Source of the DNA: Armatimonadota bacterium
GTDB lineage: Bacteria; Armatimonadota; Fimbriimonadia; Fimbriimonadales; Fimbriimonadaceae
Direction: 5' to 3'
Assembly: GCA_018268395.1 (NCBI GenBank)
Contig: JAFDWQ010000001.1
Location: 221,720-285,719, forward strand
DNA: 64,000 nucleotides
A program made the translations under genes and the position numbers. Below the pieces are notes generated by a model. The model made no database searches and was not told the DNA's origin. It saw only the letters and a list, made by a program, of their open reading frames with translations. Below, in pieces: positions 43,645 to 56,776 of this stretch (within the stretch, counting starts at the first letter, position 1; each line of letters begins with the position of its first letter).

Positions 43645-45765
<2,121 letters not shown>

Positions 45766-45861
45766 TCAAAACCCGGCAAGCTCCCCTGGGGAATCCTGTC
45801 CGGCTGTTCCGACAATTAAGGCTGTGCAGCCCCCGCAAGATGCGGGGAGGAGCCCGGCAGG

Positions 45862-47061
45862 ATGCCTTATTACGCCTATTTAGCGGTCGACAAGTCAGGA
45901 CGAAAGATCAAGTCCGTCATGGAAGCGGACAGCGAGGCGCTGGTCCTTCAGCACCTCCGGTCGGAAGGTTTGCAGGCCCTCGAGCTCAGGCAGACCCGGA
46001 AACGGGGAACCATGGCCAAGGGCAAGATGAAGCCGAAGGCCCTGGTCGTGTTCTCACGCCAGTTCGCCACGATGATCGACGCGGGCATCCCGATCTTGAG
46101 GTGCCTCGACATCCTGTGGTCGCAGACCAAGGATCCGATCCTCAAACCGGTCCTTGAGAGCGTCAGGAACGACGTCAAGGGTGGCCTCACGCTCAACGAA
46201 GCGATGGCCAAGCACCCTCAGGTCTTCAACAAGCTTTACGTCAACATGATCCGGGCGGCCGAGCTCGGCGGCATCCTGGACATCATCCTGGACCGCCTGT
46301 CGGGGTTCTTGGAGTACGAAGCCGAAGTCCGGTCGAAGATCAAGAGCTCGATGATGTACCCGGTGCTGGTCCTGGTCTTCTCGCAGCTCATGTTGTTCGT
46401 GCTGTTCAGCTTCGTGCTGCCCAAGTTCAAAGACATTTTCACGGGCATGAACGTCAAGATGCCGGCGATGACGGCGATGCTGTTCGCGATCGGCGACTTC
46501 ATGCAGGCCTATTGGTGGACGATCCTGTTGTTCGTCGGTGCCGTGCTCATCGGTATCAAGATCTACGGCAAGACGCCGAAGGGCCGCTACCAGCTCGATT
46601 TCTTCAAACTGAAGTTCCCGATCGTCGGCGAGCTTTCGCTCAAAATGAGCGTGGCCCGTTTCTGCCGCACGTTCGGCACGCTGATCAACAGCGGCGTCCC
46701 GATGATGCGCAGCCTCGAGATCGTGGGCGAAACGATGGCGAACGGCGTCCTGGCCGAAGCCGTCCAACAGACGCGCTCCAGCATTCGCGAGGGGCAGAAG
46801 CTCAGCGTGCCGCTGGCCGCTTCGGGCCTGTTCCCGAGCATGGTGACGCACATGATCGACGTCGGTGAAGAGTCCGGCCGCCTGAGCGAGATGCTCGTCA
46901 AGGTCGGCGACTTCTACGACACCGAAGTCGAGGCGACGGTGAAGGGTCTGACGTCAATGATCGAGCCGATGCTGATCATCTTCCTGGGTGGCGTGGTCGG
47001 GTTCATCGCCATCTCGGTCATGACGCCGATCTTCAGCATCGTCAACAGCGTCAACAAGTAA
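45862..47061 (+). CDS. pilC: Type II secretion system F / type IV pilus platform protein (PilC/GspF family)
   Basis: Two GspF repeats (FSRQFATMIDAGIPILRCLDIL and FCRTFGTLINSGVPMMRSLEIV) and three TM helices. Confidence 0.85.
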   Translation: MPYYAYLAVDKSGRKIKSVMEADSEALVLQHLRSEGLQALELRQTRKRGTMAKGKMKPKALVVFSRQFATMIDAGIPILRCLDILWSQTKDPILKPVLESVRNDVKGGLTLNEAMAKHPQVFNKLYVNMIRAAELGGILDIILDRLSGFLEYEAEVRSKIKSSMMYPVLVLVFSQLMLFVLFSFVLPKFKDIFTGMNVKMPAMTAMLFAIGDFMQAYWWTILLFVGAVLIGIKIYGKTPKGRYQLDFFKLKFPIVGELSLKMSVARFCRTFGTLINSGVPMMRSLEIVGETMANGVLAEAVQQTRSSIREGQKLSVPLAASGLFPSMVTHMIDVGEESGRLSEMLVKVGDFYDTEVEATVKGLTSMIEPMLIIFLGGVVGFIAISVMTPIFSIVNSVNK

Positions 47062-47071
47062 CCGATTCACA

Positions 47072-47106
47072 CCCTCCTGCCCGCCGTTCGACGGCCGGCA
47101 GGAGGG
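47072..47106 (+). terminator. Strong GC hairpin downstream of pilC (possible terminator or attenuator; no U-tract)
   Basis: CCCTCCTGCC (47072-47081) pairs with GGCAGGAGGG (47097-47106). An inner GCCG/CGGC pairing also forms. Followed by ACGACAG, not a T-run. Confidence 0.35.
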
Positions 47107-47184
47107 ACGACAGACCCTGACGGAGTCCAGGAGGGACGAAGGAAGGGATCCGGCCAGGACGGCCGGAGAACGACGATCAACGGA

Positions 47185-48453
47185 ATGAACATGTCGGAAT
47201 CTTCTGTAGGAGCCAAGAAGGACGTCGAAGCGTTGGTGGTGGATTACGCCGCCGACCCGAGACCGGACCTGAAAGACCTCATCATCGTCCAATGTGCGGC
47301 GATGGTCGAGCGGATCGCCCGCCGCTTCAGCGGCGTGGAACCGGTCGACGACCTGATCCAGGTCGGCTACATCGGGCTCCTCAACGCGCTCAGTAAGTTC
47401 GACCCCCATGCCGGAGTCAAGTTCAACACCTATGCGACGCACCTCGTCGCGGGCGAGATCAAGCACTATCTGCGCGACCGTTCTCAGATCATCCGGCATC
47501 CGGCCTGGATCCAGGAACTGCGCCAACGCATTTCGAAGGCGACACTGACGCTGCAGGCCGAGCTCGGTCGTCAGCCGACCGAACGGGAGATCGCCGAAGC
47601 CTGCAAGATCAGCGAACAGGCCATCGCAGAAGTCACCGCGACGCAGGAACTCCTGCGCGTGTCCTCCCTGGACGCGCCGCTTCAAGAGGACGAAGAGGGC
47701 GACTGCGACCTGGACAAGCTCGACGCGTCGGGCTCGTGCACGGGTCAGGTCAGTGTGGAAGACCGGGTCCTTCTCGAGTCGGCGATGCAACAGCTCCGGG
47801 ACCTGGAGCGCGAAGTCTTGGTCTACTTCCACTTCGATTCGATGAGCCAGACCGAGATCGCGGACAAACTCGGAATTTCCTGCAACTACGTCTCCCACAT
47901 CCTGAGACAATCGCTCAGCAAGCTCCGCCGCATCCTGACGAGCGAAGAGGAAGCCGACCGGTCCCTGCGCCGAAGACTGCCGAACGACGGCGAAGTGATG
48001 GACGAGGAGACCAAAGCCTATACCGAGGACTACTTGAAGGCGAGGCTGACCGAGGAGATCCATCGGGTGGTCTCGACGAACTCGGCCGTCGGGGTCGTCG
48101 TCGTGCAGTTCACGGGCCTGCAGGGCCTTCAGGAGTTCTATGGAGCGGCCAGCGTCCGCGACTTCCTGGCCGACTGCGTGGATTTCCTAAGGTCATCGGT
48201 CCGGTCCTTGGACGTCGTCTGCCGCTACGGCGATAGCGGCTTCGCCGTCATCCTGCCCGGTCAAGGCGCTTCGACGGGCCTGGTCCGGCAAAGGATGAAC
48301 CGCCGTTTCTCGCAATGGCTGATCGGTCGCTTCGCGGGCTCGAACGCCATCGAAGTCAAGATCGGACACGCCAGTGCGCCGGAGCACGGACGCAACGCCT
48401 TGGACCTCCTTTCGGTCGCTTCGGACGACCGGGCCGACCGCAAGGCGGCTTGA
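47185..48453 (+). CDS. Group-3 (SigB/SigF/FliA-like) sigma-70 factor fused to a C-terminal degenerate GGDEF domain
   Basis: Region 2: DLIQVGYIGLLNALSKFD...YATHLVAGEIKHYLRD. Region 4 HTH: SQTEIADKLGISCNYVSHILRQSL. C-terminal ~140 aa follow the GGDEF fold pattern, with RSLDVVCRYGDSGFAVILPG in place of RxxD-x5-GG[DE]EF. Confidence 0.8.
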   Translation: MNMSESSVGAKKDVEALVVDYAADPRPDLKDLIIVQCAAMVERIARRFSGVEPVDDLIQVGYIGLLNALSKFDPHAGVKFNTYATHLVAGEIKHYLRDRSQIIRHPAWIQELRQRISKATLTLQAELGRQPTEREIAEACKISEQAIAEVTATQELLRVSSLDAPLQEDEEGDCDLDKLDASGSCTGQVSVEDRVLLESAMQQLRDLEREVLVYFHFDSMSQTEIADKLGISCNYVSHILRQSLSKLRRILTSEEEADRSLRRRLPNDGEVMDEETKAYTEDYLKARLTEEIHRVVSTNSAVGVVVVQFTGLQGLQEFYGAASVRDFLADCVDFLRSSVRSLDVVCRYGDSGFAVILPGQGASTGLVRQRMNRRFSQWLIGRFAGSNAIEVKIGHASAPEHGRNALDLLSVASDDRADRKAA

Positions 48454-48508
48454 TCCTGGCGATGGGCCGGCCCACAATGGAGGGGCCGGCGCGGCGTCCT
48501 CTAGGGGC

Positions 48509-49210
48509 ATGCGTACGGTGGAAGAGCCGACGATGGCCGACGCGCGTCCCGTTTATCCCGAACTCGATTTCCCTCCTGCCTGGCCGGAGCGGCCCTACAC
48601 GTACCTGAACATGGTCGCCACGATCGACGGCAAGACCGTCTCCGGCGAGCGCGACGAAAACGTCATGGACCTTGGGTCGTCCACCGACCACGCGACGATG
48701 CGGGCCATCGAAGACGTCAGCGACGCGGTCATGATCGGAGCCGGTTCCCTACGGGCGACAAAGGGCCTCCATTACGCTCCGGGCATCAAGAGGTTCGTCG
48801 TCTCGAGCAGCGGCGGGCTGGACTACACCGCACGGTTCTTCACTGACGATCCTCACGGGACATGGGTCGTCACCGGCTCCAGAGGCTTGATTCACGTTCC
48901 AAGCCCGGTCAAAACCCTCGTCACCGGGGAATCGGCGGACTGGCGCCCTGTGCTCCTGGCGATGCGTCAGGACCTCGGCATCGAGCGGCTCCTCGTGGAA
49001 GGTGGAAGCGAGCTGAACGCATCGCTGTTCGAAGCCGATCTGATCGACGAAGTCTTCCTGACCGTGGCACCCAAGGTGAAGCTGGGGCGCGAGACGCCGA
49101 CCGTCGCCGGCGGGGACCCTCTGCCAAGGGGGTCTTTGAAGACCTTCCACCTACTCAGTTGTACGGTCGAGGAGGACGAGGTCTTCCTCCGTTATCGGCG
49201 GCCACGCTAA
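48509..49210 (+). CDS. RibD C-terminal / dihydrofolate-reductase-like family protein
   Basis: YLNMVATIDGKTV...DHATMRAIEDVSDAVMIGAGSLR...LLVEGGSELNASL. The start at ATG 48509 is chosen over the upstream track start, which overlaps the sigma gene. Confidence 0.75.
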   Translation: MRTVEEPTMADARPVYPELDFPPAWPERPYTYLNMVATIDGKTVSGERDENVMDLGSSTDHATMRAIEDVSDAVMIGAGSLRATKGLHYAPGIKRFVVSSSGGLDYTARFFTDDPHGTWVVTGSRGLIHVPSPVKTLVTGESADWRPVLLAMRQDLGIERLLVEGGSELNASLFEADLIDEVFLTVAPKVKLGRETPTVAGGDPLPRGSLKTFHLLSCTVEEDEVFLRYRRPR

Positions 49211-51079: not shown

Positions 51080-52477
51080 CTACTTTTTGCCCTGGTCGAG
51101 GTTGACCATGGTGCCCATCAACGTCTTTTCCGCTCCGCCCTTGTCGCCGCGCTGGATGGCCTGCATGGCGACCGTGACCTCTTGGGCTTCGTTCGTCCGG
51201 CCTTGCGAAAGGAGAAGAGCCTGCGTCTTTTGAAGGTCGGCCAGTGCGACGGCCGTCGTGATCTGTTGGGTTTTGAGGCCCATGATCGTCCGCTCAACGG
51301 TCCGGGAGGCGGCGCTGACTTGTGCGGCGGCCGAGACCCTCGGGTCTTGCGGCGCTGAGTAGCGTGCAGGGTCGGCCGTGAACTCCATGACGAAGTCGAC
51401 GTTCGTCGCCCGGGTCGCGCCCGACGCGTCCGAATACTCCAGCTTTCCCCCGCAAACGCGATAGTGACCAAGGGGATGGTTCGGGAAGTCAAAGTCGAGG
51501 ACGATCTGCATCGTGGCCCCGCGCTCCAGATCGGCGAGGTCGAGCGTGAACTCGCGAGAGTCCGGAGGTACGGAATGCCCGGTGACACCCCGGAGGTTCA
51601 CCCACCGTGAAAGCTTCAGCGTCAGCCGCAAGTGCATCGCGCTGACCGTCATCAACTTCTGAAGTTCCGTCCGAAAGATCTCGGGGATCAGTTGGGGCTG
51701 CGGAATGTAATAGTAGTTCCCGCCCGCCTTCTTCGCCATCGCGGCCAAGAGCTCTTCGTTGTAGTCCGGCCCGAAGCCCAAAAACGTGCAGGTCACGCCT
51801 CGTGCTTTGATGTCGCCCGCGTGCTGGACGAGACTGGCGAAGTCCTTGATCCCCGCCGTCGGGTCACCGTCGCTCAAGACGACCATGCGCGTCGCACGGC
51901 CGCTCTCGCCGTGCACCGCCAATTGATGGGCGGCGAGTTGGATGCCGTCGTACAGGTTCGTCGTATAGCCCGGCGTCAATTGGGAGATGCCGTCCTTGAC
52001 CGTTTGACGGTTCGTGACGCGCTGGGGCGGCATGAGGACTTCCACGGTCTCGTCGAACACGACGATGCTCAAAACGTCGTCAGGCCCCATGAGGTCGACG
52101 ACGAAGCCACAAGCCTGCTTGGCGTACTCCAGCGGTGGACCCTCCATTGACCCGGACCGGTCGATGACCAGGCACAGGTTGAGCGGAGTTCGCGCTCCTC
52201 CGACGGCGACACCCGGGAGCCCCGGCTCTTGCGGAGCGGTCACTTCGAGCAGGAACTGCTCGCGGGCGGGGCCGTTCGCCATGGTCGCCGTCCGGCTCGG
52301 AGCCACGGTCACTTGCAGTTCCTGCGACGGCGGCGCCCAGGCCGTGGTCCGGTTCGGGTCGCCGGCCATGGGGGCCGACGACATGGCTTGGGTCCGGTTG
52401 TCCACCGGTCCCGTGCCGATCACGGTCCGGTTCGGGTCGAACCCGCCCACCACGGTCTTGTTGGGGTCTTGCTGCAT
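51080..52477 (-). CDS. von Willebrand factor type A (VWA) domain protein with an N-terminal DPN[KR]T repeat tail
   Basis: MIDAS motif VIDRSGSMEG (DxSxS), later TNLYDG and VVLSDGDPT. No TM or signal peptide seen. About 200-aa C-terminal extension. Confidence 0.85.
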   Translation of the reverse strand: MQQDPNKTVVGGFDPNRTVIGTGPVDNRTQAMSSAPMAGDPNRTTAWAPPSQELQVTVAPSRTATMANGPAREQFLLEVTAPQEPGLPGVAVGGARTPLNLCLVIDRSGSMEGPPLEYAKQACGFVVDLMGPDDVLSIVVFDETVEVLMPPQRVTNRQTVKDGISQLTPGYTTNLYDGIQLAAHQLAVHGESGRATRMVVLSDGDPTAGIKDFASLVQHAGDIKARGVTCTFLGFGPDYNEELLAAMAKKAGGNYYYIPQPQLIPEIFRTELQKLMTVSAMHLRLTLKLSRWVNLRGVTGHSVPPDSREFTLDLADLERGATMQIVLDFDFPNHPLGHYRVCGGKLEYSDASGATRATNVDFVMEFTADPARYSAPQDPRVSAAAQVSAASRTVERTIMGLKTQQITTAVALADLQKTQALLLSQGRTNEAQEVTVAMQAIQRGDKGGAEKTLMGTMVNLDQGKK

Positions 52478-52551
52478 TCCGCTACCTATCTTCTATCCTT
52501 CGGCAATTCTGCCCTTAACTAGACGCCGGCCGGGCCTGTTTTGCTCGGTCG

Positions 52552-53994
52552 TCATTCGAGTCTGAACTGAGTCGACCCTACGGTCAAGGTGTCTCCTGGT
52601 CTTAGGAACGCCGTCTGAACGCGCTGTCCATTGACGAACGTGCCGTTCGTACTGCCCAGGTCCATGACCTGAAGCCCGCCTTGGGCCGGCGACACCGAGG
52701 CGTGGCGGCGCGAAGCTTGGGAGTCGAAACCGAGCGAGACCCCCGTCGCTTCCCGGCCCAGTTCGACGGCACCCGCCACCGGGAACCGCTGCCCGGTCAG
52801 CGGGCCCGTGACCGCGACCAAGGTCATCGCCCCGTAACCCGGCATGACCGTCGGTTGCGACGGCTGAGGCTGCGCCGGGTAGACCATGGTCGGCTGGGGT
52901 GCGGCTTGCGGCATGGCCACCGTCGGTTGGGTCGGTGGCTGCTGGTAGCCGTAGGGCTGGGGAGCCTGAGCCGGCGGAGGTACGCCCTGCGGGAATCCTT
53001 GATAAGGTGCCGTGCCGCCGACGGGGACGCCTTTGGCCCGACCTTCGTGCGCTCCGGCCGATCCGGATTTCATGAGGAACTGGAACTGCATCGTCCCGAT
53101 CTGAAATGTGTCGCCGGACGAGAGGACGGCTTGCGGCACGCGGACACCGTTGTGCCCGACGCCGATCGGCGATCCGGGATCCTGAAGCAGGTATTGGCCG
53201 CCCTGCTTGACGATCACGGCGGCAAGGGCAGGAACCGATGGGTCGCCGAAGAGGGGGATGTGGGCCCGCTCGTCACGACCGATCAGGGTCTGGGCCGCGT
53301 CGACGGGCCATTCCTTGCCCTCGTTCCTTCCCAGCACGAGCCTCACCCATGCGCGGCGTGTCGCCCAGTCCATCAGGGCTGTGAACAGCCCGATCATCAG
53401 GCCCAAGCCGAAGGCCATGACGGCCCGGGCAGGCGCTCCCGTCTCGGCTTGGAAGCCGGCAGGAACGTTCGCAGTGGCGATCGGAGGCATGAGGCCCGCG
53501 ATCGCCCTCGCCGTCACGTCGAAGACCGCTCCCGTCACGAACCCTCCGATGGCTCCACCGATCGCACCGGAGACGAGCGTCCTCAGGGAGCGTTGCGAAG
53601 CACCGACGGCGGCCCCAAGAGTGACGCCGAACGGCAGGAACGCGAACGTCCTTGCGATGACGTTTCCGTTCCCGAACCCGCCGCCGAAGAGCGAATACAC
53701 CGCTCCTGCGATCGTGTGGCCGAACCCGGCTCCGGCAGCCCCGAAAACGATCCCGAGACCGGTGGAGATCATGACGTTCTTCTTGCCGCCGCGCTCCAGG
53801 CCGTTCAAGACGCCCGCGGAACCACCGATCAGAAGGCCGAGAAAGTAGACGAACCACCGCTCGATGTTCGTGAAGGCCGGATCGAGCGTCCAGTTGCCTG
53901 CCGGAATGGTCTTCGGAAAGAACGGTTCGGTCAGGATCCAAGCGACAAAGCCTGCCGCGCCGCAGACCATGGCCTTGATCAGTGCGCGTCCCAT
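52552..53994 (-). CDS. Membrane protein with a glycine-zipper TM domain, a degenerate FHA-like domain, a P/Q-rich linker and a canonical C-terminal FHA domain
   Basis: C-terminal LGREATGVSLGFDSQASRRHASV...MDLGSTNGTFVNGQRV is a canonical FHA. The middle LIGRDERAHIPLFGDPSVPALAAVIV...GHNGVRV is FHA-like but lacks the SR.H and S.NGT residues. N-terminal GxxxG-rich helices. Confidence 0.8.
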   Translation of the reverse strand: MGRALIKAMVCGAAGFVAWILTEPFFPKTIPAGNWTLDPAFTNIERWFVYFLGLLIGGSAGVLNGLERGGKKNVMISTGLGIVFGAAGAGFGHTIAGAVYSLFGGGFGNGNVIARTFAFLPFGVTLGAAVGASQRSLRTLVSGAIGGAIGGFVTGAVFDVTARAIAGLMPPIATANVPAGFQAETGAPARAVMAFGLGLMIGLFTALMDWATRRAWVRLVLGRNEGKEWPVDAAQTLIGRDERAHIPLFGDPSVPALAAVIVKQGGQYLLQDPGSPIGVGHNGVRVPQAVLSSGDTFQIGTMQFQFLMKSGSAGAHEGRAKGVPVGGTAPYQGFPQGVPPPAQAPQPYGYQQPPTQPTVAMPQAAPQPTMVYPAQPQPSQPTVMPGYGAMTLVAVTGPLTGQRFPVAGAVELGREATGVSLGFDSQASRRHASVSPAQGGLQVMDLGSTNGTFVNGQRVQTAFLRPGDTLTVGSTQFRLE

Positions 53995-55259
53995 CAGGCC
54001 TCGAATCGGAACGCCACGGCTCCGAACTGCACGGAATCTCCGACGGAGAGGGCCGTCTCGCCTTGGAGGCGGCTCCCGTTCACGAACGTTCCGTTCGTGC
54101 TTCCGAGGTCCGTCAGCCGGACCGAGTCACCGGCCCGGTCGAACCGTGCGTGCTGGCGGGAGACGGAAGACTCGCCGATCAAGGAAAGGCCCAGGCCGTC
54201 GTCCCGACCGACGGTCGTCGCCCCTTCTTGCAGCAGGACCACGGATCCGTCCGGACGGACGAGTCGTGGATTGGCCGCCACCATCGTCGTCGTGGCCATC
54301 GGCGTGACAGCGGCCGTTGGAACGGCGGCGTCGAGCACGATCGGTTTGAGCGGTTGGGGCTGCTGGGGCACGGGCGGTGCGGGCGTCTGGTCTTGCGGAG
54401 GCTGCTCGCCGATGCCGAACTTCTTCAAGGCGTCGTCGACCTGCTTGGTGTTCTTCTTGTAGTAGGTGAAAACGGCGTAGCCGAGGCCGCCGACGACGGC
54501 CAGCCCGATCACCAGATTGAGCAACGAGACCAAGGGGTTCGGTGCGGACGCGGCTTCCCGTTCGACCGACCTGCGGTCGTCCCGTCTGCTGTCAGGCCCG
54601 CGGTCGTCCTTGACGTCCGAGGGCTGCGTCGCCGTGCTGGAACCGGGAGTCGGTGTTTCCGACATCGTCTCGACTTCGCCTGTCACGGTCAAGGTGTGAG
54701 GTTTGGCCGGGCCGTCTCCTAGTTTCGCCTCGAACGTTTGAGGCGGGGTCGTTTGGGTCGACCCTCCCGAGTTGTACTGGACCCGGACTTCGACGGGCCC
54801 GACCGGCAGGTTGTAAACGTTGACCGTTCCCTTGCTCTCTGGAGTCAGGAGCGCTTCCCGCTCTTCCTTTCCGGCTTTGGCTTTCACGACGGCCGCTGCG
54901 ACGGGCTTTCCGTTGGAAACGACGGAGAACTGAAGCCGGAACACGCGCTTTTCGTCAGCGGCCGCGACCTTCCAGCTTCCCGTCTTCATCGCGTCTGCCA
55001 GTGGCTTCGAGGCCACGTTGCCCGACTTCTTATCGTGGGCGTAGAGGGTATAGGCCGCAGGATCGGAGGGGGCGTCAAGAGTGATCGAGAGCCCGGTCGC
55101 CGCGACCGGGTCTTTGAACAGCCCCGGAGTGGCCGTCGGGCCGATCCAGACTTCACGGTCGCCCTCGGCAGCGAATTCGATTTTTACCGGCTTCGCTGTT
55201 TGCCCCCTAGCGTTCGCGCACAGGACGAGCGCCACGCAAAACCCCCAAACTGTTCTCAC
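53994..55259 (-). CDS. Single-pass membrane protein: signal peptide, extracytoplasmic beta-sandwich-like region, TM, P/Q linker, cytoplasmic FHA domain
   Basis: The GTG at 55259 forms a GTGA overlap with the nnr stop and gives VRTVWGFCVALVLCANARGQ (signal). TM LVSLLNLVIGLAVVGGLGYAVFTYY. FHA VGRDDGLGLSLIGESSVSRQHARF...LTDLGSTNGTFVNGSRL. Its stop overlaps the next ATG (TGATG). Confidence 0.75.
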   Translation of the reverse strand: MRTVWGFCVALVLCANARGQTAKPVKIEFAAEGDREVWIGPTATPGLFKDPVAATGLSITLDAPSDPAAYTLYAHDKKSGNVASKPLADAMKTGSWKVAAADEKRVFRLQFSVVSNGKPVAAAVVKAKAGKEEREALLTPESKGTVNVYNLPVGPVEVRVQYNSGGSTQTTPPQTFEAKLGDGPAKPHTLTVTGEVETMSETPTPGSSTATQPSDVKDDRGPDSRRDDRRSVEREAASAPNPLVSLLNLVIGLAVVGGLGYAVFTYYKKNTKQVDDALKKFGIGEQPPQDQTPAPPVPQQPQPLKPIVLDAAVPTAAVTPMATTTMVAANPRLVRPDGSVVLLQEGATTVGRDDGLGLSLIGESSVSRQHARFDRAGDSVRLTDLGSTNGTFVNGSRLQGETALSVGDSVQFGAVAFRFEA

Positions 55260-56776
55260 GTCGTTAGAATAGACCGCGCCCGAGGCAAGAATTGCGCGAT
55301 GTCGGAAGCAGAAAATCCGATCTTGCCGATTTCTTGAGCGCAGAGGTCTCCGGCCAAACCGTGCCACAGGGCCCCTTTCCAACCTGCCTCCGTCCAGAAT
55401 CCGGGGGGTAATTGGGCCAAGAGCGTCCCGATCACGCCGGCCAAGACGTCTCCCGTCCCGCCAGACGCCATCCCCGCGTTTCCTGTCGAGTTGACGGTCA
55501 GAGGCCCGCCGTGGGTGGCATAGACCGAGTAGGCGCCCTTCAGCAGAACAGGGCGTCGCAGCGTTTCGCAGAGACGGCGGACGGCGCCGAACCGGTCGGA
55601 CTGGACGGTCGCAGCCGTTGCCGGTTCACCGAGTAAGCGACCGGCTTCTCCTGGGTGAGGGGTCAGGATGCAAAAGGCGACAGGTGGTTCGATGGCGCGC
55701 GCCAACCAGTTCAGCGCGTCCGCGTCGAGGACGGAACGGACCTCCCATCGGCTCCAGAGCGCCCTCAAGAAGCGGCCCGCTCCAGGCGATAGACCGAGCC
55801 CTGGCCCGATGACCGCGGATTCCCAAGCTTTCTGAGCCTCGATCAAGATCGGTGCCGCTTTCTCGCTGATCGCTCCTTCGTCTTCTGGAAGCGGCAGGAA
55901 GACCGCCTCCGGGACATGCGAGGCCACCGCCGCGATGACGGGTTCGATGGCCGCCACCGTCACCAGGCCTGCGCCCGCTTTCAAGGCGCCCTGGGCGGCC
56001 AGCGTCGCCGCACCACGGTAACGCGCCGACCCGGCGATGACGACGACGTGCCCGTTCGCACCCTTGTGACTGTCCGTCGTCCGGACCGGCAGGACCGTCG
56101 TGGTCGGGGCGAGCCGCACCCCTGTCGGTCTTTCGAGCAGTCCTTGGGGAAAGCCGATGTCGGCGACGCTCCACTTGCCGGAGAATCCGGGACCAGACCG
56201 CAAGAACAGGTACGGCTTGGGAAGCCCTAGAGTCACGGTCTCATGGGCCATGACGGCCATCCCCAACACCTCGCCTGAGTCCGTTTCGATCCCAGAGGGT
56301 ACGTCGACCGCGATCCGATGACACTGCATTGCGTTGATCGCTTCGATGGCAGCGGCGACCGTCCCCGAGACTTCACGCGTGGCGCCCGTTCCCAGCACCG
56401 CGTCGACGACCACGGGCCAATGCCCCCTTTTCAGAGCCCCGCGCGCCGATGGGTCGCTTAAGTCGGACACCTTGCATCCGGCGGCCCTGCACCTTTGCTC
56501 CTGTTCCAAAGGCAGCCCTTTCAGGTCGAGCGTCGTGGCGAACACCGAGACGTCGAAGCCCGCTTCGTGCGCCAGACGGGCGACGACATAGCCGTCGCCT
56601 CCGTTGTTCCCGGGCCCACAGACGACGGCGACCGGGGACGGCCCGGGCGCCGCCCGGCGGACGGCGTCGAACACCGCACGACCGGCGTTCTCCATGAGCG
56701 TCTCGGCGGCGATCCCGTGCTCGGAGGAGGCTAAAGCCTCGGTTTCACGCATCTCGGCCGCGGTCGCGATCCACAT
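55256..56776 (-). CDS. nnr: Bifunctional NAD(P)H-hydrate repair enzyme (epimerase YjeF_N plus ADP-dependent dehydratase)
   Basis: From the ATG at 56776: MWIATAAEMRETE..., VVCGPGNNGGDGYVVARL, HKGANGHVVVIAGS, GGTGDVLAG. The upstream 145 codons of the track ORF overlap the ASCH gene in another frame. Confidence 0.85.
   Translation of the reverse strand: MWIATAAEMRETEALASSEHGIAAETLMENAGRAVFDAVRRAAPGPSPVAVVCGPGNNGGDGYVVARLAHEAGFDVSVFATTLDLKGLPLEQEQRCRAAGCKVSDLSDPSARGALKRGHWPVVVDAVLGTGATREVSGTVAAAIEAINAMQCHRIAVDVPSGIETDSGEVLGMAVMAHETVTLGLPKPYLFLRSGPGFSGKWSVADIGFPQGLLERPTGVRLAPTTTVLPVRTTDSHKGANGHVVVIAGSARYRGAATLAAQGALKAGAGLVTVAAIEPVIAAVASHVPEAVFLPLPEDEGAISEKAAPILIEAQKAWESAVIGPGLGLSPGAGRFLRALWSRWEVRSVLDADALNWLARAIEPPVAFCILTPHPGEAGRLLGEPATAATVQSDRFGAVRRLCETLRRPVLLKGAYSVYATHGGPLTVNSTGNAGMASGGTGDVLAGVIGTLLAQLPPGFWTEAGWKGALWHGLAGDLCAQEIGKIGFSASDIAQFLPRARSILTT

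Follow-up and report, generated by a model that had tools for sequence, protein, structure and literature searches.

[quoted passage not shown] There (PDB 6pfj, 6pfv), the availability of a group-3 sigma factor is tied to c-di-GMP, which is sandwiched between the sigma and RsiG, a separate anti-sigma protein. Two recent receptor reviews (PMC12564702 is one of them) name no other c-di-GMP effector linked to a sigma factor, in agreement with the initial annotation of the present locus, which knew of c-di-GMP control of a sigma factor only through an anti-sigma. Here, we describe a group-3 sigma factor from Armatimonadota for which a dependence on c-di-GMP is likewise predicted, but with the putative receptor fused to the sigma and no adjacent anti-sigma gene.

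Degenerate GGDEF domains that retain the RxxD motif of the inhibitory site (I-site) are established c-di-GMP receptors, for example PopA of Caulobacter, which feeds substrate to ClpXP (PMC12564702). PopA binds c-di-GMP with a dead A-site and an intact RxxD, and the domain studied here has the same combination and is predicted to bind likewise. PelD and SgmT are other degenerate-GGDEF receptors of the I-site type. In these three proteins, the domains are on receiver, GAF, or kinase modules and act via localization or on polysaccharide machines. None is on a sigma factor, whereas here a putative degron, the receptor, and the regulated activity would share one polypeptide. PleD and WspR have the same four I-site residues (R359, D362, R390, and R313 in PleD) at the same spacing from the signature, and the mechanism proposed below is modeled on the way in which intercalated c-di-GMP cross-links their domains. 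However, PleD and WspR are active cyclases that are shut off by binding, and here there is no catalysis to inhibit.

Fused domains are familiar from ECF (group-4) sigma factors, which may carry C-terminal extensions of SnoaL-like, TPR, or zinc-binding type. As we propose here, the fused domain regulates the sigma in cis with no separate anti-sigma; we know of no ECF extension that is a second-messenger receptor domain. Among group-3 factors, cyanobacterial SigF drives pilA1 and autoregulates (PMC7690835, PMC2532724). Like the gene described here, SigF is linked to type IV pili, but it has no GGDEF domain and its promoter differs (TAGGC / GGTAA versus CTnnRG-N-CCGAnAAT here). To our knowledge, gene regulation in Armatimonadota is almost entirely unexplored. 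Fimbriimonas, a described relative, is non-motile, bears fimbriae, and has many pilus genes; its genome paper and supplements mention neither GGDEF nor a sigma-GGDEF gene (PMC4072686), and we found no description of the sigma-GGDEF architecture in the literature.

A sigma factor and a GGDEF domain in one open reading frame

We analyzed a 64-kb window, that is, the whole stretch of Armatimonadota DNA under study. See Table 1 for the positions of all features discussed. The uninterrupted 422-codon frame of the initial annotation is present, but the true start is probably the ATG at 47191 (MSESS...), which is consistent within the family and lies directly 3' of a CAACGGA(G/A)TGAAn block conserved in relatives; the protein would then have 420 aa. 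Residue numbers follow the 422-aa count (start 47185) throughout. Pfam finds all four domains above gathering scores, bearing out the division into a complete group-3 sigma and a ~140-aa GGDEF-fold domain: Sigma70_r2 (aa 36-100, 51 bits), Sigma70_r3 (aa 111-173, 43 bits), Sigma70_r4 (aa 200-248, 41 bits), and GGDEF (PF00990, 56.4 bits versus a cut-off of 23.8). Structure prediction, which had been proposed together with the Pfam scan, also yields a GGDEF fold. The AlphaFold model, built on an alignment of 120 homologues, has a mean pLDDT of 83.6 and a pTM of 0.43, and replaces a run on the lone sequence (pLDDT 39). No confident packing between the sigma and GGDEF domains is seen at this pTM, and the model therefore does not back the autoinhibition proposed below.

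We searched for relatives and obtained 978 matches in one search and 1142 in another. The same architecture is present in the best 120 of the 978 and in 117 of the best 120 of the 1142, and the matches listed share the four Pfam domains except for one truncated fragment and three frameshifted copies. The apparent relatives without a GGDEF domain, P0306-P0308, turned out to be frameshifted and to end in junk tails. The sigma and GGDEF architecture is shared by more than 300 distinct relatives of full length, and 307 GTDB species encode one, nearly all labeled Armatimonadota. This spread, which the initial annotation had suggested searching for, excludes its other concern, a fusion created by a frameshift or by assembly, and we reject the artefact reading. 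Judged by these sequences, the fusion is ancient and conserved.

The sigma part comprises the first ~250 aa and has regions 2, 3, and 4 but no region 1.1, as in group-3 sigma factors. Its best NCBIfam match is SigBFG (TIGR02980) at 188.5 bits, below the curated cut-off of 234.35, so the protein is SigB/F/G-like rather than a curated member. Second is the cyanobacterial-type SigF model PRK07408 (166 bits, below its cut-off of 261). The higher score on SigBFG (188 bits) than on FliA_WhiG (TIGR02479; 117 bits, or 116.8 against a cut-off of 189.6) separates the protein from FliA (sigma-28), the name that one MAG annotation gives to a family member. The closest solved relative is SigB of the S. aureus open complex (8x6g_H, E 4e-31), and WhiG is found among both sequence and fold matches. 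No HATPase_c or STAS gene occurs among the genes between 40772 and 53994 (~-6.4/+5.5 kb around the sigma-GGDEF gene), and gene calls in five related loci (L081, L082, L083, L084, and L086) likewise include neither an anti-sigma nor a STAS gene, consistent with the earlier remark that no RsbW/SpoIIAB-like kinase or STAS gene is adjacent. There is no second group-3 sigma in the 64-kb window.

Table 1. Features of the sigma-GGDEF locus, in window coordinates
Feature	Position	Strand	Remarks
Promoter-like element: -35-like CTGGGGA (45786-45792), -10-like CCGACAAT (45809-45816)	45786..45816	+	upstream of pilC
pilC, PilC/GspF-family type IV pilus platform protein, 399 aa	45862..47061	+	Pfam T2SSF, 208 bits
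Long GC-rich hairpin CCCTCCTGCC...GGCAGGAGGG, no T-run	47072..47106	+	just 3' of pilC stop; read from sequence
Leader hairpin TCCGGCC-AGGAC-GGCCGGA, GGA in loop	47149..47167	+	17 nt 5' of first ATG
Ribosome-binding block CAACGGAATGAAC (family CAACGGAGTGAAn)	47178..47190	+	directly 5' of ATG 47191
sigma-GGDEF gene	47185..48453	+	422 codons as listed; probable start 47191
Sigma-70 regions 2 (47290-47484), 3 (47515-47703), and 4 (47782-47928)	47290..47928	+	Pfam; SigB/F/G-like group-3
Degenerate GGDEF domain, aa 272-412	47998..48420	+	Pfam PF00990, E 3.9e-15; fold match
R294 = PleD R313, secondary I-site	48064..48066	+	184/184 and 120/122 members
RSLD, I-site RxxD (R340, D343)	48202..48213	+	= PleD R359/D362; 184/184 and 122/122 members
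GDSGF, degenerate GG[DE]EF signature	48229..48243	+	no family member has GG[DE]EF
R370 = PleD R390, third primary I-site residue	48292..48294	+	183/184 and 118/122 members
C-terminal Ala-Ala ending hypervariable tail, degron-like	48445..48450	+	AA in 163/184 and 115/122 members

The GGDEF domain lacks catalytic residues and keeps I-site residues

A Foldseek search with the AlphaFold model places the C-terminal domain among GGDEF domains, with 4urs_A matched at a TM score of 0.75 (rmsd 2.8 Å, 144 columns) and PleD also matched. The signature takes forms such as GEYSF, RSTGF, ADVDTI, DTYQL, and EDDTF in relatives, and it is scrambled even in members only 27-37% identical within the domain. VVVQFTGLQ occupies the place of the D-x-D-x-x-K block, and profile alignment pairs PleD D327, D329, K332, N335, D344, G369, E370, and E371 with Q, T, Q, Q, R, D, S, and G, respectively. 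Across our alignment of 306 members from two clades (184 + 122), the catalytic, metal-binding, and GTP-binding positions are lost or scrambled in every member and vary from one to the next; the count of intact signatures is 0/306. This replacement throughout the family agrees with the earlier judgment, made from GDSGF and VVVQFTGLQ, that cyclase activity is unlikely.

The I-site is a different matter. An RxxD motif lies five residues upstream of GDSGF (RSLDVVCRYGDSGF, nt 48202-48243), and the profile alignment agrees with the PleD-type spacing first noticed in the initial annotation, equating PleD R359/D362/R390/R313 with R340/D343/R370/R294. RxxD is found in 306/306 members (R340 and D343 each in 306/306). 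R370 (301/306) and R294 (304/306) are two further PleD I-site arginines that the annotation had not included, conserved at 97-100%. R294 belongs to an invariant helix face, R287-E290-E291-(H293)-R294, and R347 is likewise invariant. Only ~8 of the 141 GGDEF positions reach this degree of conservation in both clades, and four of these are the I-site positions chosen beforehand, for which our hypergeometric estimate gives a chance of ~4e-6. An RxxD five residues upstream, together with R390- and R313-equivalent arginines, is the arrangement of I-site receptors of the PopA/PelD type, and by this measure the conservation pattern is that of a c-di-GMP receptor domain. RxxD is common in active cyclases too, and its conservation could in part reflect structure inherited from them; the motif occurs in 103 of the 113 nearest generic GGDEF proteins, a sample biased by its selection for similarity to an RxxD-bearing query. 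Neither an active cyclase nor any other GGDEF or EAL protein is encoded in the 64-kb window, and a search of related loci totaling 1.39 Mb, which at +/-10 kb represent a small part of each genome, likewise yielded no active cyclase.

Pairing with pilC and a conserved C-terminal dipeptide

The position directly downstream of pilC, from which a surface-related role had first been suspected, is a conserved feature: of 80 related loci, 79 have pilC immediately 5' of the sigma-GGDEF gene and in the same orientation (median identity 74%). By NCBIfam, the best match of the upstream gene is type IV pilus PilC (406 bits), followed by GspF (396 bits), both below their cut-offs. The pair is almost invariant in Fimbriimonadales-type clades. 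Two Chthonomonadales-type loci have no pilC adjacent to the sigma-GGDEF gene, so the pilus link fails to span the whole family. A T2SSE ATPase gene precedes pilC in the divergent loci L083 and L086, and that of L083 scores as PilT/PilU family (485 bits versus a cut-off of 319). No pilins, CsrA, PilB/PilT, tRNA, or tmRNA were found in the 64-kb window.

The protein ends in Ala-Ala in 278 of 306 members (~90%), and almost all others end in VA, AS, AG, or SA. The frequency of Ala in the tail is 0.15, and the tail has low pLDDT in the AlphaFold model. Across members, each of the four Ala codons and each of the three stop codons is used, and this free choice indicates that the constraint acts at the protein level. 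Degrons of the ssrA/CtrA type show a sequence pattern in which an unstructured tail ends in two non-polar residues, typically Ala-Ala, and CtrA itself carries a C-terminal Ala-Ala. Going by this pattern, the most likely role of the tail is to tag the protein, in the ssrA/CtrA manner, for a ClpXP-type protease.

A candidate built-in c-di-GMP receptor and its alternatives

We favor, at a probability of roughly 0.55, the reading that this is a group-3 sigma factor whose fused dead-cyclase GGDEF domain serves as a built-in c-di-GMP receptor via its I-site. Intercalated c-di-GMP would bind R340, D343, and R370 and, as in PleD under product inhibition, connect these residues to the R294 of another molecule or domain. 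The bound sigma would be locked in a state unable to engage core RNA polymerase, and the GGDEF domain would act as an anti-sigma that is tethered covalently and depends on its ligand. Through the Ala-Ala tail, the half-life of the protein may be governed by ligand state as well. c-di-GMP could turn the sigma on or off, and the choice of direction is a guess. In Fimbriimonadales-type lineages, the gene would be co-transcribed with pilC from the sigma-28-like promoter described below, and its translation would probably be throttled by a CsrA-like leader hairpin with GGA in the loop. Type IV pilus and surface-behavior genes would be the likely output, if cyanobacterial SigF is taken as a guide.

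If this reading is true, the protein would be the shortest known route from c-di-GMP to promoter choice and the first group-3 sigma controlled in cis by a second-messenger domain. The family spans the whole of a poorly studied phylum, with one large clade locked to a type IV pilus gene. The system is also tractable, as it consists of one 420-aa soluble protein with four named residues, a candidate promoter at 45786-45816, and a putative degron of two residues. A long shot is that the protein forms a type IV pilus checkpoint in the fashion of FlgM-FliA, with c-di-GMP at its I-site deciding whether it stays bound to the cytoplasmic side of PilC or is set free, while free protein is cleared by ClpXP via Ala-Ala. 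If so, transcription of surface-behavior genes would reflect the status of the pilus machine together with the second-messenger level, with no separate anti-sigma.

The strongest competitor of the receptor reading, although still unlikely, is that the domain is a ligand-independent protein-protein module for dimerization, for docking (to PilC, an unlinked anti-sigma, or RNA polymerase), or as a proteolysis handle, with the conserved Arg, Asp, and Glu residues forming an interface. The helix face R287-E290-E291-R294 does include residues with no known I-site role, R347 is invariant as well, the strict pairing with pilC and the Ala-Ala tail fit docking or degradation, and ECF sigmas with fused regulatory extensions that act by protein contacts are known. 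However, such a module leaves unexplained why the strongest constraint falls on the four PleD I-site residues while the former nucleotide surface drifts, and the I-site residues are conserved also in the clade that has no adjacent pilC.

Sensing of another nucleotide, such as GTP, (p)ppGpp, or another cyclic dinucleotide, seems improbable to us. Degenerate GGDEF domains can sense GTP, as in Caulobacter PdeA. A PleD structure with c-di-GMP and pppGpp (9g86) is among our fold matches, and D326, beside the PleD D344-equivalent position, is 92% conserved in the window's clade. Yet the A-site residues for GTP (PleD N335, D344, the metal ligands, and GGEEF) are lost and variable, and the residues that are conserved belong to the I-site, whose known ligand is c-di-GMP.

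It is very unlikely that the domain is a functionless relic and that unlinked partner-switch proteins control the sigma. The GGDEF part does evolve faster than the sigma part (27-37% versus 43-55% identity in divergent members), and our search for RsbW and STAS genes covered local neighborhoods only. A relic would nevertheless have to be reconciled with a full-length domain in more than 300 distinct members and in 307 species, with surface residues that never vary, with the constraint on the two C-terminal residues, and with the fact that the only copies without the domain are frameshifted. Finally, we reject a residual, weak diguanylate cyclase activity through which the protein would link transcription to c-di-GMP made locally, as the GGDEF fold is present but the GG[DE]EF signature and the metal- and guanine-binding residues are lost across the family.

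Candidate promoter and leader elements

The promoter-like element upstream of pilC belongs to a family with the consensus C[T/G]nn[G/A]G[A]-N14-T-n-CCGAnAAT. In ~60 of 72 loci, the pilC start is preceded at a distance of ~25-105 nt, and mostly of 45-70 nt, by a CCGAnAA[T/C]-type motif, and the remaining loci have one-base variants (GCCAATAAC, GCCGATCAT). The -10-like CCGAnAAT recalls promoters of FliA, and the whole motif resembles the sigma-28 consensus, TAAA-N15-GCCGATAA, with a spacer 2 nt longer. A scan for sigma-70-type promoters around pilC and the sigma-GGDEF gene found none, and no intrinsic terminator was found there either, the GC-rich hairpin 3' of pilC not being called as one. We scanned all loci with a position weight matrix derived from the pilC promoters. 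The scan recovered the training sites and a few extra ones, 5' of the sigma gene in L026 and L038 and 5' of pilT in L083; no regulon could be defined from the scan of the fetched loci. L081 encodes a separate true FliA/WhiG-family sigma (238 bits versus a cut-off of 189.6), and the sigma-28-like promoter may be read by such a separate FliA in some loci, not by the sigma-GGDEF protein.

An Rfam search of 45600-48600 gave no match, and a motif scan of the window and 86 fetched loci, which are small parts of each genome, gave no CsrA-like ORF. The leader of the sigma gene has GGA in a hairpin loop together with a conserved ribosome-binding block (CAACGGAGTGA), the arrangement of CsrA/RsmA-controlled leaders, and its AGGA-loop hairpin looks like a CsrA site. 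Along with the Ala-Ala tail and the sigma-28-like promoter, this hairpin suggests that control extends to protein stability and translation. Among 70 distinct sigma leaders, 49 have a GGA-in-loop hairpin within the last 70 nt, versus 5.8 +/- 2.6 (maximum 16) after shuffling. The stem sequences differ between leaders, the loops are mostly AGGA or AGGAT, and the hairpins usually end 15-30 nt before the ATG. In the ribosome-binding block, the A and GGA are invariant in 38 aligned leaders.

Architecture and predicted fold

The initial annotation joined a sigma factor and a GGDEF domain in a single 422-codon ORF, and this arrangement stood: the frame has no interruption, and Pfam finds Sigma70_r2, Sigma70_r3, Sigma70_r4 and GGDEF within it. 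The motif coordinates were also correct, with RSLD lying five residues N-terminal of GDSGF, as had been reported. By NCBIfam, the sigma part is nearest the SigB/SigF/SigG model TIGR02980 (188.5 bits, below the cut-off of 234) and more distant from the FliA/WhiG model (116.8 bits). Among solved structures, S. aureus SigB in an open complex (8x6g_H, E 4e-31) is the best relative.

Rather than the listed ATG at 47185, the second ATG, at 47191, is the start codon that fits the family: it follows the conserved ribosome-binding block CAACGGA(G/A)TGAAn and is favoured by family alignments. A start at 47191 gives a 420-aa protein beginning MSESS, as the closest homologue does. Residue numbers here follow the 422-aa version.

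AlphaFold without an alignment gave a pLDDT of 39, and we used a rerun with 120 homologues (mean pLDDT 83.6, GGDEF part mostly >90), which has the expected GGDEF fold. Using Foldseek, the GGDEF part matches the T. maritima GGDEF domain 4urs_A (TM 0.75, rmsd 2.8 Å) and also PleD, and the N-terminal part matches sigma factors including SigB, sigma-S, sigma-28 and WhiG. A modelled long helix continues from region 4.2 toward the GGDEF domain; at a pTM of 0.43, the model does not fix how the two modules are placed relative to each other.

Features of the sigma-GGDEF gene, its product and associated loci (window coordinates unless a locus is named)
Feature	Nucleotides	Residues	Details
Sigma-GGDEF ORF	47185-48453 (+)		422 codons
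Sigma70_r2		36-100	Pfam
Sigma70_r3		111-173	Pfam
Sigma70_r4		200-248	Pfam
Long helix		233-263	AlphaFold model
GGDEF		272-412	Pfam, 56.4 bits vs gathering score 23.8
RSLD	48202-48213	R340-D343
GDSGF		349-353
C-terminal Ala-Ala	48445-48450	421-422
Promoter-like motif, first element	45786-45792		CTGGGGA, 5' of pilC
Promoter-like motif, second element	45809-45816		CCGACAAT, 5' of pilC
GC-rich long hairpin	47072-47106		arms CCCTCCTGCC / GGCAGGAGGG
Leader hairpin	47149-47167
Ribosome-binding block	47178-47190		CAACGGAGTGA, invariant GGA
VWA-FHA cluster	51080-55382 (-)		L081: 14676-18766
FliA/WhiG-family sigma	L081: 6585-7361 (-)
ClpS gene	L084: 8381-8695		Clp protease adaptor

Distribution of the fusion

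Among 5.8 billion proteins searched, 978 matched the window protein. The best 120 of these are 57-94% identical, about 420 aa long, carry the sigma domains plus PF00990, and were found in independent MAGs with Armatimonadetes or Fimbriimonadaceae labels. Since the same architecture is shared across the family, a fusion created by a frameshift in the window, which the initial annotation had flagged for checking, is excluded. Three apparently GGDEF-less relatives (P0306, P0307 and P0308) were rejected as frameshifted gene calls, in which the C-terminal half, from a point inside the GGDEF region, is junk rich in Arg and Ala.

Scanning one genome per species, we found a relative encoded in 307 GTDB species, and the best 80 are all Armatimonadota except one MAG labelled Methyloversatilis. 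A second search, from the divergent member P0142, reached a broader clade of 1142 matches with labels including Fimbriimonadales, Chthonomonadales and "bacterium HR15." The exceptional locus, L035, lies on a 1.4-Mb contig (CALRVI020000001.1) of a MAG labelled Methyloversatilis discipulorum, and its pilC-sigma locus is near-identical to that of Armatimonadota MAG FIMBRI1 (L034); the record is probably mislabelled or mis-binned. The "Chloroherpetonaceae" MAG encoding the relative P0363 may be a similar case.

When the GGDEF domain alone was searched against 1.84 billion cluster representatives, close relatives occurred only in sigma fusions or their fragments, and matches weaker than about E 1e-14 were generic cyclases. 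Group-3 sigmas and I-site receptor GGDEF domains are each known already. No description of the fusion was found in the full text of open-access papers, and recent reviews of c-di-GMP receptors list RsiG-sigmaWhiG as the sole connection to a sigma factor. What would be new is the combination of a group-3 sigma, a putative receptor GGDEF domain and a built-in degron-like tail.

Degenerate catalytic site and conserved I-site

Alignments covered 184 distinct sequences from the window's clade and 122 from a second clade, the latter roughly 40-50% identical to the window protein. We mapped PleD onto the family by profile alignment, and every numbered PleD residue landed on the expected amino acid.

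PleD functional residues mapped onto the sigma-GGDEF family
PleD residue	Role	Window protein	Conservation
R359	primary I-site	R340	306/306
D362	primary I-site	D343	306/306
R390	primary I-site	R370	301/306
R313	secondary I-site	R294	304/306
D327, D329, K332, N335, D344	metal, phosphate, guanine binding	Q, T, Q, Q, R	variable
G369, E370, E371	signature	D, S, G	variable

The dead catalytic site with a retained RxxD, first proposed from the window alone, is a property of all aligned members, with GG[DE]EF in none of the 306. Divergent members have GEYSF, RSTGF, ADVDTI, DTYQL or EDDTF in the signature position, and RxxD-x3-R is retained where the signature is scrambled. Near-invariance in both clades is limited to about 8 of the 141 positions in the domain (R287, E290, E291, R294, R340, D343, R347 and R370), and four of these are I-site positions chosen beforehand, for which our own hypergeometric estimate of chance is ~4e-6. 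Known receptor GGDEF domains such as PopA (PMC12564702) show this combination of a dead catalytic site and an intact I-site. These sequences are best read as a sigma factor to which a putative c-di-GMP receptor is covalently joined.

The main rival is that the GGDEF part is a ligand-independent interaction module. Binding of a different nucleotide ligand is less likely, followed by a functionless relic domain; residual cyclase activity comes last, the metal-, phosphate- and guanine-binding positions being variable.

On whether these organisms make c-di-GMP, no active cyclase was found in the window or in 1.39 Mb of related loci, which span small parts of each genome. For the putative c-di-GMP receptor, we propose a mechanism in which intercalated c-di-GMP, held by R340, D343 and R370, would bridge to R294 of a second copy, modelled on product-inhibited PleD. 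The bridged sigma would be immobilised, leaving region 4 unable to engage core RNA polymerase. Through its Ala-Ala tail the protein would be open to a protease, and ligand state may affect how fast it is turned over. We infer the direction of the c-di-GMP effect, the protease and the regulon.

A conserved C-terminal Ala-Ala

The last ~15 residues are hypervariable and modelled with low confidence. They end in Ala-Ala in 163/184 members of the window's clade and 115/122 of the second (278/306 overall), and nearly all others end VA, AS, AG or SA. With Ala at 15% in the tail, Ala-Ala would be expected by chance in ~2%. Both positions use all four Ala codons, each of the three stop codons is found, and the genes downstream vary between loci, so it is the protein that is under constraint. 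The ssrA tag, the CtrA degron and the cleaved RseA fragment are ClpXP substrates with a core of Ala-Ala on a flexible tail. By analogy, the tail is a candidate degron of the ssrA/CtrA type, for a protease like ClpXP. A ClpS gene lies ~1 kb 3' of the sigma-GGDEF gene in L084, a Chthonomonadales-type locus with no adjacent pilC; its proximity may be coincidence.

Linkage to pilC

Upstream of the window gene are genes for a Tmemb_14 protein, homoserine dehydrogenase, a Cys/Met PLP enzyme, LigA and PilC, and downstream are RibD_C, FtsX, ABC ATPase, VWA and FHA proteins. As initially annotated, there are no partner-switch genes (HATPase_c or STAS) near the window sigma gene, nor near it in the related loci examined. 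pilC lies immediately 5' of the sigma gene on the same strand in 79 of 80 related loci (median identity 74%); other neighbours are unconserved or partly conserved. The pair is kept where the GGDEF part is only 27-35% identical, with a gap down to 28 nt (L082). The description of pilC as an orphan also held, the sigma gene being its sole partner, with no PilB/PilT or pilin genes found in the window. A T2SSE ATPase gene lies 5' of pilC in L083 and L086, the L083 copy scoring as PilT/PilU family.

Two loci of a ~445-450-aa subclade, one labelled Chthonomonadales and one Chloroherpetonaceae, have no adjacent pilC, so the pilus link holds in some clades only, unlike the family-wide I-site and Ala-Ala tail. 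Given the pilC operon and the SigF-pilA1 precedent (PMC7690835), output in Fimbriimonadales is likely pilus-related.

The conserved cluster downstream, which encodes a VWA protein and two FHA-domain proteins, resembles a phospho-threonine signalling module. The first FHA protein has a multi-pass N-terminal membrane region and a linker rich in Pro and Gln.

Promoter-like and leader signals

About 60 of 72 loci have the conserved promoter-like motif C[T/G]nn[G/A]G[A]-N14-T-n-CCGAnAAT 5' of pilC, at about 25-105 nt (mostly 45-70 nt) from its start, and the others have variants that differ by one base. Extra copies precede the sigma gene (L026 and L038) and pilT (L083). The sigma-28 consensus is TAAA-N15-GCCGATAA, which the motif resembles in sequence with a spacer 2 nt longer. 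Related loci encode a separate FliA/WhiG-family sigma (238 bits against a cut-off of 190). The gene in L081 is flanked by ORFs of 65 and 85 aa, one of which might be a FlgM-like anti-sigma, and a MotA gene lies a few kb away. Similar ORFs occur <10 kb 5' of pilC in ~11 loci (L003, L004, L008, L013, L014, L021, L026, L029, L034, L035 and L049). Plausible readers of the motif are this FliA/WhiG-family sigma or, by autoregulation, the sigma-GGDEF protein; Synechocystis SigF autoregulates (PMC2532724).

The pilC-sigma spacer has a median of 118 nt. A GGA-loop hairpin occurs in 49 of 70 distinct sigma leaders drawn from L001-L080, compared with 5.8 ± 2.6 in mononucleotide shuffles. Loops are usually AGGA or AGGAT, the 3' end usually lies 15-30 nt before the ATG, and the stems have wholly different sequences between loci. 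pilC leaders are weakly enriched (15/69 vs 4.0 ± 1.9; control region 4/69). GGA in a hairpin loop with GGA at the ribosome-binding site is the target layout of CsrA/RsmA, and by sequence the sigma leader has a layout of this type. No Rfam family was found for the hairpin, and no csrA gene in the window or the related loci, which are parts of genomes. The GC-rich long hairpin 11 nt 3' of the pilC stop lacks a T-run, and the terminator scan did not call it; it could serve in RNA stability or processing.
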